Source: an uncultured Lachnospiraceae bacterium | GTDB lineage: Bacteria > Bacillota > Clostridia > Lachnospirales > Lachnospiraceae | Length of the DNA stretch: 64,000 nucleotides | Reading direction: 5' to 3' | Assembly (NCBI GenBank): GCA_947626285.1 | Contig: CANQRR010000005.1 | Coordinates: 15,256-79,255 of the forward strand | Shown: positions 54,526-57,234 of the stretch, piece by piece | Layout: every line of letters starts with the position of its first letter | Numbering within the stretch: the stretch's first letter is position 1 | Translations under genes and position numbers: made by a program | Notes under the pieces: generated by a model | Told to the model about the DNA's origin: nothing | The model's database searches: none | Seen by the model: the letters and a program-made list of their open reading frames with translations, nothing else

Positions 54526-55197
54526 TCACTCCGACACCAGCATCTGTCTCAGCTCCCTGACGTTCGGCACGATGCGCTCCGGCGCGGCTCCCGCCGCGAT
54601 CAGGAAATCCCTGTCCCGGAAACCCCAGGACACCAGGATATAGTCCAGTCCCGCGTTCTGTGCCGTCTTCAGATCCACGTCGGAATCTCCCACATAGACC
54701 GCGCGCTCCCTCTGTACGCCAAGCGCTGAGAGCGCCTGCAGCGCGCAGTCCGGCGCCGGCTTCCTGCGGCAGTCCTTCCGCTCCCCGATCGCCACGTCCA
54801 CTAACTCTTTGAAATACACGCCCTTCAGCTTCTGCACCGCCGGGTCCGCCTTGTTTGACACGATCGCCGTGCCAACGCCTTCCTTCTTCAGCCAGTCCAG
54901 CAGAGACAGCACTCCGGGATACGGCTCTGTCGCGTCCATACAGTGCGCCTCATAGTGCTCCCGAAAGGAGTCAAAGATCTGCTCAAACTCCGGGTGTTCC
55001 TCCCCGCCGGGCACGCTGCGCTGGATCAGCCTGCGGACGCCGTTCCCGACAAACTGCCGTACTTCCTCTATCGTGTGTCCCGGAAGTCCGAATCGCTCCA
55101 TCGCCGCATTCACGCTGGCGGTCAGATCCGCAAGCGTATCCAGCAGCGTACCATCCAGATCGAAGATCACCGCATCGTATCGTAATGTCTCTTCCAT
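54526..55197 (-). CDS. HAD-family phosphatase (phosphoglycolate phosphatase-like)
   Basis: FDLDGTLLDT, VSNK, KPAPD and VGDSDVD motifs; own TTGTGA-17-TATGAT promoter. Confidence 0.92.
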   Translation of the reverse strand: MEETLRYDAVIFDLDGTLLDTLADLTASVNAAMERFGLPGHTIEEVRQFVGNGVRRLIQRSVPGGEEHPEFEQIFDSFREHYEAHCMDATEPYPGVLSLLDWLKKEGVGTAIVSNKADPAVQKLKGVYFKELVDVAIGERKDCRRKPAPDCALQALSALGVQRERAVYVGDSDVDLKTAQNAGLDYILVSWGFRDRDFLIAAGAAPERIVPNVRELRQMLVSE

Positions 55198-55349
55198 GTG
55201 CCGTTCGCTCTCCTTCTTTTCAGCCTTCTTCTTTCATATATCCGGAAGCATCATAGCACATATGGGCCATCTTCACAATGAATAATTCCGGGCCGCATCA
55301 CCGGAGGAATACTCTCCTGCAAGCACAATACCGCACAAAAATGCCAGCG

Positions 55350-55754
55350 TCATGCCGCAATCTTCTCTGTGCCGCGGGCATATCCGTCTGCTGCCGCCGC
55401 CTGGCGCGCAGGTGCAGGATATACCATGACGCGCCTTTTTCCGCTCTCTGAAAGAGGCCGCAGTGCGGCAACGCGATCCGCCAGCCCGCCCGCGCCGATC
55501 AGCGCGGCCGCCGTCAGGATCACGAACAGCACCCACATAAACGCCAGCACCGGGATCGGCGCCAGGCGCACATCGATCCTGAGCACAGCCAGAACAACGA
55601 TCTCCTCCAGCAGTCCCGCCGCAGCGCAGAACCTCTGTCCCTCTCTCGTCAGCTCCCTGTATATATTTTCGCCGCTTTCTCTTCCGCCCTCCTTCCGGTA
55701 CTCTTCCGCGTATGCTCTTCTGTTCTCCGATCTGAAATCCCCTGTTCTCTTCAT
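55350..55754 (-). CDS. Small (134 aa) hypothetical membrane protein, predicted SOS-inducible
   Basis: GGAGAG RBS; charged N-terminus; two hydrophobic segments; GC3-rich codons; dedicated promoter carrying LexA boxes. Confidence 0.72.
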   Translation of the reverse strand: MKRTGDFRSENRRAYAEEYRKEGGRESGENIYRELTREGQRFCAAAGLLEEIVVLAVLRIDVRLAPIPVLAFMWVLFVILTAAALIGAGGLADRVAALRPLSESGKRRVMVYPAPARQAAAADGYARGTEKIAA

Positions 55755-55785
55755 TTCCGTACTCTCCCAAAACCCCTGATTTGTC

Positions 55786-55871
55786 CGAACGCAAGTTCAG
55801 AACGTTTGTTCTGTTTTGCATTCTACTACATCCCAAAAGATTTGGCAAGTACTTTTTCGAACTTTTGTTCG
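55786..55871 (-). promoter_or_regulatory. Sigma-A promoter with three LexA/DinR (Cheo) boxes
   Basis: TTGCCA (55843-55848)-17-TAGAAT (55820-55825); CGAAC-TTTT-GTTCG at 55858-55871, AGAAC-GTTT-GTTCT at 55799-55812, CGAAC-GCAA-GTTCA at 55786-55799. Confidence 0.85.
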
Positions 55872-55875
55872 TTTT

Positions 55876-57234
55876 TTACAAAATGAGACTCTCCCCGTTG
55901 CTCCGAATCACTTCGCGGTACCAGTATGCGCTGTCCTTCAGGATCCGCTCCTGCGTGCGGTAATCCACGTAGACGAGCCCGAAGCGCTTCTCGTACCCGG
56001 CCGTCCACTCATAGTTGTCCATGATCGACCAGTACTGGTAGCCGAGTATCGGGATCCCCTCGTCCGTCGCCTTCTTAAGAGACAGCAGATAACGGTGCAC
56101 AAAATCCTGTCTGCCCGGATCGTGCACTTTTCCGTCGAGCGACACGAGATCCGGAAAAGCCGCCCCGTTCTCCGTGATCATCAGCGGTTTCTCGTAGCGC
56201 TCATACAGGAAGCGGCAGCACCAGTACAGCACATCCGGCGTAATGTTCCAGCCGAGCGCCGTCTTCGGACTGCCCTGATAAGAATAGCGGTCATACGCAT
56301 AGGGATCGTGCGGCTGCGGAACCCCGCTCGCCTCATAGACGTTGAAACCGTAAAAATCCAGCGGCTGGGAGATCAGCTTCCACTCCTCCTGCGTGATCAC
56401 AGGCAGCCTGTCCCCGAACACTTCCCTCGCCTGGTCGGCAAAGTCTCCCTTGAAGATCGGATCCGCCCACCAGACGTTGCTGAACATATAGTCCATCTCG
56501 TTCATGGAGAAGCTCTCCTGCCGCGCCTTCTCGATTCCTTCCTCCGAAAGCTCCGACGGGATCACGCAGCCCCCGGTCGGAGCCATCCCGACCTTTGCGT
56601 CCGGACAGTTCCTGCGGATGACCTCCACCGCCCTGCCGTGCGCGAGGAACACATGCTTCGTGACCTGCATCAGGATATCCGTCGGATTCTGCTCAAACGG
56701 CGCGTGGAAACCCACCGTCATCCCGCCGCCGACGAAAAGCTGCGGCTCATTGAATGTCATCCAGTACTTCACCTTGTCCCCGAGCGCCTTCGTGACGACC
56801 TCCGCGTACTGCGCGAACCACCCGACGATCTCCGGATTCTTCCACCCTCCTTTTTCATACAGTGCGGTCGGCAGATCCCAGTGATAGAGCGTCACCATCG
56901 GCACGATATCCGCCGCAAGCAGCTCATCGACAAGATTCCGGTAAAACTGCAGACCCTTCTCGTTCACCTCGCCCACACCGTCTGGGATCACCCTCGGCCA
57001 GCTGACGGAGAAGCGATAACTCTTCAGCCCGATCTCTTTCATGAGCGCCACATCTTCCCTGTAGCGGTGATAATGGTCGCACGCGACGTCTCCGTTCTCG
57101 CCGTAAGCGATGCGCCCCGGCGTCCGCGTGAACGTATCCCAGATGCCCGGTCCCTTCCCGTCCTCGTTCCAGGCGCCCTCGACCTGATGCGCGGCCGACG
57201 CTGCGCCCCACAGAAAATCTTTTGCAAATGCCAT
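55876..57234 (-). CDS. GH1 beta-glucosidase
   Basis: AAHQVEGAW, DHYHRY, YRFSVSWPR, TFNEP (acid/base) and ITENG (nucleophile) motifs. Confidence 0.95.
   Translation of the reverse strand: MAFAKDFLWGAASAAHQVEGAWNEDGKGPGIWDTFTRTPGRIAYGENGDVACDHYHRYREDVALMKEIGLKSYRFSVSWPRVIPDGVGEVNEKGLQFYRNLVDELLAADIVPMVTLYHWDLPTALYEKGGWKNPEIVGWFAQYAEVVTKALGDKVKYWMTFNEPQLFVGGGMTVGFHAPFEQNPTDILMQVTKHVFLAHGRAVEVIRRNCPDAKVGMAPTGGCVIPSELSEEGIEKARQESFSMNEMDYMFSNVWWADPIFKGDFADQAREVFGDRLPVITQEEWKLISQPLDFYGFNVYEASGVPQPHDPYAYDRYSYQGSPKTALGWNITPDVLYWCCRFLYERYEKPLMITENGAAFPDLVSLDGKVHDPGRQDFVHRYLLSLKKATDEGIPILGYQYWSIMDNYEWTAGYEKRFGLVYVDYRTQERILKDSAYWYREVIRSNGESLIL

Follow-up and report, generated by a model that had tools for sequence, protein, structure and literature searches.

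Does a short open reading frame (ORF) behind three LexA-type operators encode an effector of the DNA-damage (SOS) response, and what would such a protein do to the cell? The question is raised by a locus in a stretch of 64,000 nucleotides from an uncultured Lachnospiraceae bacterium (contig CANQRR010000005.1, positions 15,256 to 79,255), which is called the window in the following. On its minus strand, three perfect GAAC-N4-GTTC sites bracket a TTGCCA-17-TAGAAT promoter upstream of an ORF of 134 codons (55350-55754). A first-pass annotation of the locus had proposed an SOS-controlled small membrane protein acting as division inhibitor or toxin. Our analysis indicates that the gene very probably encodes an SOS-induced effector of a new family that would arrest growth or division. 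A narrower assignment, a LexA-repressed and short-lived membrane hairpin whose most likely role would be the inhibition of division or septal synthesis, is one to which we give about an even chance.

The operator-promoter module and the SOS regulon

All elements of the locus lie on the minus strand, and box offsets are counted from a start site predicted approximately 7 nt downstream of the -10 hexamer, at about 55813. LexA box 1 (CGAACAAAAGTTCG, 55858-55871, approximately -58 to -45) is located 4 nt past the stop codon of the upstream gene, a GH1 beta-glucosidase (stop codon at 55876-55878). It is followed by the -35 hexamer TTGCCA (55843-55848), identified in a promoter scan, by a 17-nt spacer and by the -10 hexamer TAGAAT (55820-55825). 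Box 2 (AGAACAAACGTTCT, 55799-55812) covers approximately +2 to +15 and abuts box 3 (TGAACTTGCGTTCG, 55786-55799, approximately +15 to +28); the two boxes have one base in common and their centres are 13 bp apart. The Shine-Dalgarno sequence (SD) GGGAGAG at 55762-55768 is kept in the orthologues and stands 7 nt before the ATG, with which the ORF begins at 55754. The stop codon occupies 55350-55352, and the product ends in -EKIAA. The promoter matches the consensus in 10 of 12 positions and was one of two promoter-like sites in a 1-kb scan. Within the window, GAAC-N4-GTTC occurred five times against 1.0 expected, a count that was obtained in none of 100 shuffles, and three of these five sites fell inside 85 bp at the small ORF. 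Promoter and sites were all located where the first-pass annotation had placed them.

The source genome (3.73 Mb, 52.7% G+C, 147 contigs, 97.6% complete) contains 38 perfect GAAC-N4-GTTC sites, and nowhere but at the small-ORF locus were three of them seen together. Perfect sites were found 33 nt ahead of the start codon of recA (CGAACATAGGTTCG, contig C21), in the intergenic region of uvrB (AGAACATTTGTTCT, C47), as two copies of AGAACATATGTTCT in front of a radical-SAM/HhH DNA-repair gene (C25), and in the intergenic region in front of the gene for a 464-amino-acid protein of unassigned family. Imperfect copies of the motif, for example AGAACATATGTGCT, precede lexA, a gene on contig C9 that scored 244.6 bits and exceeds the TIGR00498 cut-off. 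Since the motif stands before recA, uvrB, the radical-SAM repair gene and, imperfectly, lexA, we read GAAC-N4-GTTC as the LexA operator of this organism, which bears out the assignment made in the first-pass annotation. With a weight matrix built from the regulon sites, the small-ORF locus excluded, box 1 ranked eighth genome-wide. A genome scan with one mismatch allowed was too noisy to delimit the full regulon. From the operator match and the promoter-blocking placement of the boxes we infer that the small gene belongs to the LexA (SOS) regulon, with LexA binding, induction and the start site all being predicted.

The module is retained in the relatives of the small gene. In nine aligned loci, near-invariant conservation sets in abruptly, some 5 nt ahead of box 1, and extends to the ATG; L012-L014, three orthologous loci outside this alignment, have the same three boxes. 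TGTAGTAGAATGCA in the -10 region is invariant in 12 aligned orthologues. Overall, promoter and boxes are kept in 13 orthologous loci, where box 1 is identical or near-identical. Box 2 is kept in all orthologues as well as in L011, L016, L025, L027, L029, L030 and L032. Box 3 is kept in the orthologues, with a degenerate copy in L008, and box 1 recurs in L027 and L029, two distant loci. Three boxes occur in L011, L027 and L029 and, with one mismatch each, in L016 (same genus, approximately 30% identical), while L025 and L030 have two boxes past the -10 and L032 has one perfect box together with a box-like sequence. Throughout, distant loci included, boxes 2 and 3 keep a centre-to-centre distance of 13-14 bp. 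The only examined distant member without boxes was L031, a weak member from a separate subfamily. The module persists without GH1 upstream in L003 and L008, behind a metallo-beta-lactamase-fold gene in L013, and despite a different upstream gene in L025 and L027. As judged from these loci, it travels with the small ORF, whatever gene stands upstream. The homology search and upstream motif scan suggested in the first-pass annotation thus recovered a family in which boxes are kept down to approximately 26% identity, and with 13 orthologous and seven distant loci holding them in the same layout, its expectation of conserved boxes stands.

Other LexA-type sites of the genome also deserve mention. 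The two perfect AGAACATATGTTCT boxes at the radical-SAM/HhH 'DNA modification/repair' gene (C25, 41034-42599) are 24 bp apart and are the strongest LexA sites of the genome. The uvrB leader (C47, 19400-19640) contains a long near-perfect hairpin and then a T-run (GAAAAAGTTCGCCTATTAGGCAG...CTGCCTAATAGACGAACTTTTTT); the hairpin sits between the LexA box and promoter on one side and the start codon on the other, and it resembles an attenuator or terminator in an SOS leader. An 81-codon hydrophobic ORF across the uvrB operator was considered as a second SOS membrane protein and discarded as spurious, a product of AT-rich promoter and leader sequence. A second copy of the uvrB operator and promoter, with a 90-codon 5' fragment of uvrB, lies on C41 (2480-4325) back-to-back with the gene of the 464-amino-acid protein, and the two have one perfect AGAACATTTGTTCT box in common. 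On account of this box, the gene of the 464-amino-acid protein, which had no Pfam match, is a possible SOS gene. On C100, a lexA-like box (AGAACATTTGTGCT, position 2629) stands 50 nt ahead of an ORF of 1507 amino acids; its N-terminus is suggestive of PolC.

A narrow family of predicted membrane hairpins

A word-indexed search with the small protein returned 18 unnamed relatives, and an exhaustive profile search yielded 72 cluster representatives at E<1e-3, 40 of these at E<1e-10. In total the family comprises approximately 85 relatives, none of which is named in the source databases. Their lengths range from 81 to 230 amino acids, and their identities reach down to approximately 26%. Among nine orthologues, the pairwise ratio of nonsynonymous to synonymous substitution rates (dN/dS) was 0.14-0.52, with dS between 0.2 and 1.7. 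Given dN/dS values below 1, relatives at approximately 26% identity and the conservation of SD and start codon, we judge the ORF to be a real gene under purifying selection and the founding member of an unnamed family. The small protein is fast-evolving: it is 63-64% identical between genomes in which the GH1 protein is 93% and the HAD hydrolase encoded downstream 81-83% identical.

The protein had no Pfam hit even at E<=10 and no NCBIfam match, in agreement with its earlier description as unannotated. Scans of the protein and 64 relatives against Pfam, NCBIfam and PHROGs assigned no family, apart from marginal matches to Phage_holin_3_6 in two of the 64 members (best E 6e-4) that probably reflect hydrophobic composition. 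No LysM match was found in any of the 64 members, and neither a PDB sequence-profile search nor Foldseek returned a significant match. Solid hits occurred only in the window's own genus, with 400 Lachnospiraceae genera searched, and the genome loci of the family all come from rabbit-gut metagenome-assembled genomes. A pattern scan for the promoter module in JGI metagenomes and IMG/VR gave 0 hits, and tblastn against phage and plasmid collections found none. The family is thus rare, restricted to a narrow clade and known mainly from metagenomes. Weak hits in other genera (L017, L020, L023), which have neither boxes nor the YRELT motif described below, were set aside and may be unrelated hairpin proteins.

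The architecture of the protein was derived from a 64-member alignment with charge counts and from an AlphaFold2 (AF2) run on a 64-sequence alignment. An N-terminal tail with a mean of 36 residues, frequently containing R/Y/E-rich repeats, leads to the motif [IV]YRELTxxG directly ahead of helix 1. This helix (FCAAAGLLEEIVVLAVLR, residues 42-59, 55578-55631) consists of 18 residues with an invariant Cys43 and a Glu at position 9 or 10 in 64 of 64 members (E50/E51). An outer loop of exactly 7 residues in every member, I[RQ]xxxxP, connects it to helix 2 (IPVLAFMWVLFVILTAAALIGAGGL, residues 67-91, 55482-55556), which carries an FLW motif and a conserved Thr and is followed by a C-terminal tail of 37 residues on average. 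Both helices were placed by alignment and AF2. In the AF2 model the helices span residues 37-58 and 67-98, with a predicted local distance difference test (pLDDT) score of 89-95 over the hairpin and approximately 93-95 in helix 1; the tails were modelled with low confidence, and both are predicted to be disordered. Summed over the 64 members, lysine and arginine amount to 474 in the N tail, 34 in the loop and 426 in the C tail. According to the positive-inside rule, which is established, their concentration in the tails places both tails in the cytoplasm, and the protein is predicted to be an N-in/C-in helical hairpin. Translation, charge counts and AF2 confirmed the 134-residue protein with a charged N-terminus, two hydrophobic segments and a -KIAA end that the first-pass annotation had described. 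The N tails range in length from 7 to 136 residues within the family, and in some members they are made of short tandem charged repeats, such as the RE(N/H)R(N/D)FAE units of P0024 and the VIESRALENR-type heptads of P0056.

The extreme C-terminus reads [AV][ASC] in 41 of 70 representatives, versus 1.9% of the long ORFs of the genome (approximately 30-fold; binomial p ~1e-51). This ending is mostly preceded by K or R, and examples are KAS, RAS, KVS, IAA and SAA. In the window it is KIAA (55353-55364), a putative degron within the family ending [KR]x[AV][ASC]. A conserved end of 2-3 residues after a hypervariable linker has the signature of a short linear motif, for which a degron would be the obvious candidate; the ssrA tag ends in -AA. 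The small-residue end, which the first-pass annotation had compared with ClpXP and tail-specific protease degrons, is a family-wide trait. Since the C tail is predicted to lie inside the cell, a cytoplasmic AAA+ protease, ClpXP or FtsH, would be a better match than an extracellular tail-specific protease.

A predicted fold-back RNA and the neighbouring genes

No intrinsic terminator was found between the GH1 gene and the promoter; on the sense strand box 1 forms a hairpin that is followed by A residues, not U. With this hairpin lacking a U-run and no terminator after GH1, read-through would be a real risk at the locus. The read-through RNA from 55880 to 55735, which extends from the GH1 stop into the ORF, folds at -41.9 kcal/mol with a z-score of -5.56 (200 shuffles). 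RNA from the predicted SOS start shows no excess of structure over its shuffles (z 0.05). In the long RNA, a 5' arm composed of GUACUU, GCCAAA and CUUUUGG (55833-55852), which overlaps the -35 hexamer and the spacer, pairs with a 3' arm at 55759-55779 that includes five of the seven SD bases. RNAalifold recovers the nested structure as the consensus for 12 orthologues, in which the outer-stem pair 11-103 of alignment A5 is AU in nine, GU in two and GC in one. Rfam gave no match at the locus.

In a test at eight diverse loci, in which only the 47-nt promoter segment was shuffled, the fold-back had z-scores of -6.0 in the window, -8.1 in L004, -5.6 in L008, -3.7 in L025, -2.5 in L027 and -3.9 in L029. 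The pairing is held by different sequences in L025, L027 and L029; in L025, for instance, UUCCUGCU pairs with AGCAGGAA beside the start codon. A stem confined to the spacer was rejected because its covariation was not significant alone, and the wider fold-back is supported mainly by its folding energy relative to shuffles. Because the 5' arm overlaps the -35 and the spacer, it is missing from RNA of the SOS promoter. Transcripts arriving from outside would then be translationally silenced, and only transcripts from the predicted LexA-controlled start would be translated. The -35 hexamer itself is TTGCCA in the window versus TTGCAA in all relatives, and the extra C adds fold-back pairs with the GG of the SD. 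The variant of the window may trade promoter strength for tighter SD occlusion.

This arrangement is similar to the 'protection from outside transcription' of IS10/Tn10, in which a fold-back blocks translation of the transposase from read-through transcripts; Davis, Simons and Kleckner reportedly described this inhibition in 1985. As in IS10, sequence upstream of the gene's own start would pair with the ribosome-binding site while transcripts from its own promoter are translated. The folding statistics indicate that the 5' arm here, in contrast, would be the -35 and spacer of a LexA-controlled chromosomal promoter and not a transposon end.

Downstream of the small gene lies a gene for an HAD-IA hydrolase (54526-55197), which is phosphoglycolate-phosphatase-like in its best NCBIfam match, a match below the cut-off, and has a TGnTATGAT promoter of its own at 55250-55278. 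Across relatives as distant as approximately 26% identity, it follows directly in the window and in ten further loci (L001, L002, L008, L011, L016, L025, L027, L029, L030 and L032), and no terminator-like site was found between the small ORF and the HAD gene. A metatranscriptome contig of 414 nt, 98% identical, spans 55121-55534; it covers the ORF in its 3' half, continues into the HAD gene and is weak evidence of expression and co-transcription. In L003-L007 the HAD gene is lost and amt follows directly, with the small gene and its operators persisting. HAD homologues in 29 other genera, which stand without the small ORF, had no box within 700 nt, and for this reason the boxes are assigned to the small ORF. 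The box-less homologues and the loss of HAD from five orthologous loci led us to reject the hydrolase as true SOS target or obligate partner; it is at most a read-through passenger. SOS read-through into the phosphatase may be meaningful, or the order of the genes may reflect mere synteny. In two distant loci, tandem repeats fill the interval from the small gene to HAD, namely approximately five copies of a unit of about 45 nt (GGGGATACACAGCTGTCGTTTTCGCTGTATTTCTGCTGTC) in L027 (1786-2109) and approximately four copies of a unit of about 30 nt in L032 (1090-1334).

Proposed mode of action and related SOS proteins

In the proposed mechanism, three LexA dimers would occupy the promoter, one at box 1 immediately before the -35 and two at boxes 2 and 3, which span +2 to +28, so that transcription would need LexA cleavage after DNA damage. 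In RNA from the upstream gene, pairing of the -35/spacer arm with the SD region should block translation, and in RNA from the SOS promoter the absence of this arm would leave the SD free. The hairpin with its buried Glu is expected to act inside the membrane, given that the outer loop has 7 residues and that the hairpin is the conserved part of the protein. Most likely it would bind a component of the divisome or of septal wall synthesis, an FtsW-type target, and pause division during repair. The cytoplasmic [KR]x[AV][AS] end, here KIAA, probably marks the protein for fast removal by an AAA+ protease of the ClpXP or FtsH type, and this proteolysis would end the effect once LexA is restored. 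The three brakes, namely the triple operator, the fold-back structure and the degron-like tail, suggest that the product is harmful outside the SOS state. We know of no SOS gene for which gating by operator, RNA structure and degron together has been reported. An inhibitor of division or septal synthesis is favoured because action within the membrane has a precedent in SidA and YneA and because no LexA-boxed gene of the LysM/YneA type was found in the source genome, whose sole small LysM ORF has neither a transmembrane helix nor a box.

The known inhibitors of division in the SOS response are small membrane proteins of low sequence conservation, and the protein described here would resemble YneA, SosA and SidA in function without being homologous to them. 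With YneA of Bacillus subtilis and Listeria, which is removed by proteolysis, it has in common that it is a small and poorly conserved membrane protein behind several GAAC-N4-GTTC LexA operators. The transmembrane segment of YneA is needed for activity and contacts transmembrane segment 7 of FtsW (PMC13396833). The two proteins have no sequence similarity, however, and YneA combines one helix with an outside domain and has LysM, whereas the small protein lacks LysM, has two helices whose outer ends are both predicted to face the cytoplasm, and has an outer loop of 7 residues that cannot bind peptidoglycan. Moreover, yneA is divergent from lexA, whereas the small gene is located on C5 and lexA on C9. 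The absence of LysM, the position of lexA on another contig and the different topology agree with the earlier statement that this is not a canonical YneA.

SosA of Staphylococcus aureus, a late division inhibitor, is likewise a LexA-controlled small membrane protein. A short C-terminal truncation stabilises and hyperactivates SosA, the extreme C-terminus of which controls turnover (PMC6851548). By analogy, the conserved C-terminal motif of the family suggests a SosA-like turnover logic. SosA is a single-pass protein with an extracellular C-terminus that is cleared by the extracellular protease CtpA, whereas the C-terminus is predicted to be cytoplasmic here; the relatives form one unnamed two-helix family without homology to SosA, although the SosA sequence was not compared directly. 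SidA and DidA of Caulobacter are damage-induced inner-membrane inhibitors of FtsW/FtsN. They work by transmembrane contacts with almost no extracytoplasmic part, a mode that the 7-residue loop would force on the small protein as well, but they are much shorter, single-helix, proteobacterial proteins of unrelated sequence.

A further comparison concerns TisB/IstR-1 and DinQ/AgrB of E. coli, LexA-controlled type I membrane toxins of 27-29 amino acids, each with an antisense RNA antitoxin. The LexA boxes and a membrane product with charged helix residues are similar, as would be the predicted control of translation by RNA structure; the differences are the 134 amino acids, the long tails and the degron-like end of the protein described here. 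A type I toxin (<60 amino acids) was rejected as an identity on the basis of these 134 amino acids and of the length range of the family. A phage holin was rejected given two marginal matches in 64 members, no hits in PHROGs, phage, plasmid or IMG/VR collections, and GH1, HAD and amt as neighbours.

Several observations weigh against a division inhibitor controlled in the manner proposed. The sequence itself offers nothing by which a toxin that forms pores or depolarises the membrane could be told from a division inhibitor, and an ion-conducting oligomer would be equally compatible with the buried conserved Glu and the hairpin shape. YneA, SosA and ChiZ are single-pass proteins with an extracellular domain, whereas the small protein is a two-helix hairpin. 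Two of the eight diverse loci (L011, L030) had no excess folding, and covariation is thin among the close orthologues, with three pairs showing double changes. Approximately 40% of the representatives lack the C-terminal motif, whose status as a degron is argued from analogy. The sole RNA evidence is the 414-nt contig, which comes from a near relative, is unstranded and could represent DNA carry-over.

The main rival reading is an SOS-induced membrane toxin: hairpins would oligomerise, the helix-1 Glu would line an ion or proton path, and depolarisation of the membrane would lead to growth arrest or persistence similar to TisB/DinQ, or to holin-like lysis, and not to specific inhibition of the divisome. 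The Glu at position 9 or 10 in all 64 members and the loop fixed at 7 residues are consistent with such a toxin, as are the multi-layer gating by three operators, fold-back and degron-like tail, which is typical of harmful products, and the two weak matches to Phage_holin_3_6. The two abutting boxes over the start site also recall the dual overlapping LexA boxes of colicin and lysis genes. We regard the toxin as rather unlikely, considering the length of 85-230 amino acids and the long disordered tails, which set the proteins apart from type I toxins of 27-50 amino acids, the probable origin of the marginal holin matches in hydrophobic composition, the lack of phage or plasmid context and of hits in the corresponding collections and IMG/VR, and the lack of an antisense-antitoxin sign, as no opposite-strand promoter-like site was found in 55100-56100 by a consensus scan that a weak promoter could escape.

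An SOS role without arrest is improbable; here the protein would, for example, serve a transporter or a membrane protease as adaptor or regulator, or would work together with the HAD hydrolase in handling damage-derived metabolites. E. coli Gph, an HAD phosphoglycolate phosphatase, clears the 2-phosphoglycolate that arises in DNA repair, and the HAD gene stands directly downstream in the window and ten loci, with no terminator-like site before it and one RNA contig bridging both genes. However, HAD has its own promoter in the spacer, its deletion in L003-L007 left the small gene and operators in place, and its homologues in the 29 other genera are accompanied neither by boxes nor by the small ORF. 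Heavy gating and fast evolution are also more in keeping with an arresting effector than with a metabolic helper. By far the least probable is a locus outside the SOS response, in which the palindromes would serve another regulator or act as roadblock or terminator for GH1, or in which the ORF would be untranslated. On the opposite strand boxes 1 and 2 are followed by T-runs and score as weak terminator-like hairpins, and the only RNA contig covers the 3' half of the ORF, not its 5' half. Against this stand the match of the boxes to the recA, uvrB and lexA operators of the same genome, their constant position relative to -35 and -10 in loci without GH1, and the conservation of the protein to approximately 26% identity with dN/dS below 1 and a conserved SD and start codon.

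The preferred reading is still the SOS-induced hairpin that most likely inhibits division or septal synthesis. In its fullest form it would define a new class of SOS checkpoint in Clostridia, with a both-ends-in hairpin, a buried Glu that is essential for catalysis or electrostatics, ssrA-like cytoplasmic clearance and promoter DNA doubling as anti-SD sequence; as a whole, this class is possible, although doubtful. Literature searches turned up no characterised division inhibitor or membrane effector under SOS induction from Lachnospiraceae, nor from gut Clostridia generally. The small gene is a concrete and well-delimited candidate with an architecture unlike every characterised inhibitor, and it bears on the growth arrest of abundant gut anaerobes after DNA damage by fluoroquinolones and under bile-acid or oxidative stress. 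If the Glu hairpin binds FtsW or a similar target, it would extend the emerging view of FtsW as a common target of SOS inhibitors (PMC13396833). Should the promoter-embedded anti-SD sequence operate as proposed, it would represent a compact form of read-through silencing, and thus both a design principle and a search signature for hidden toxic genes.

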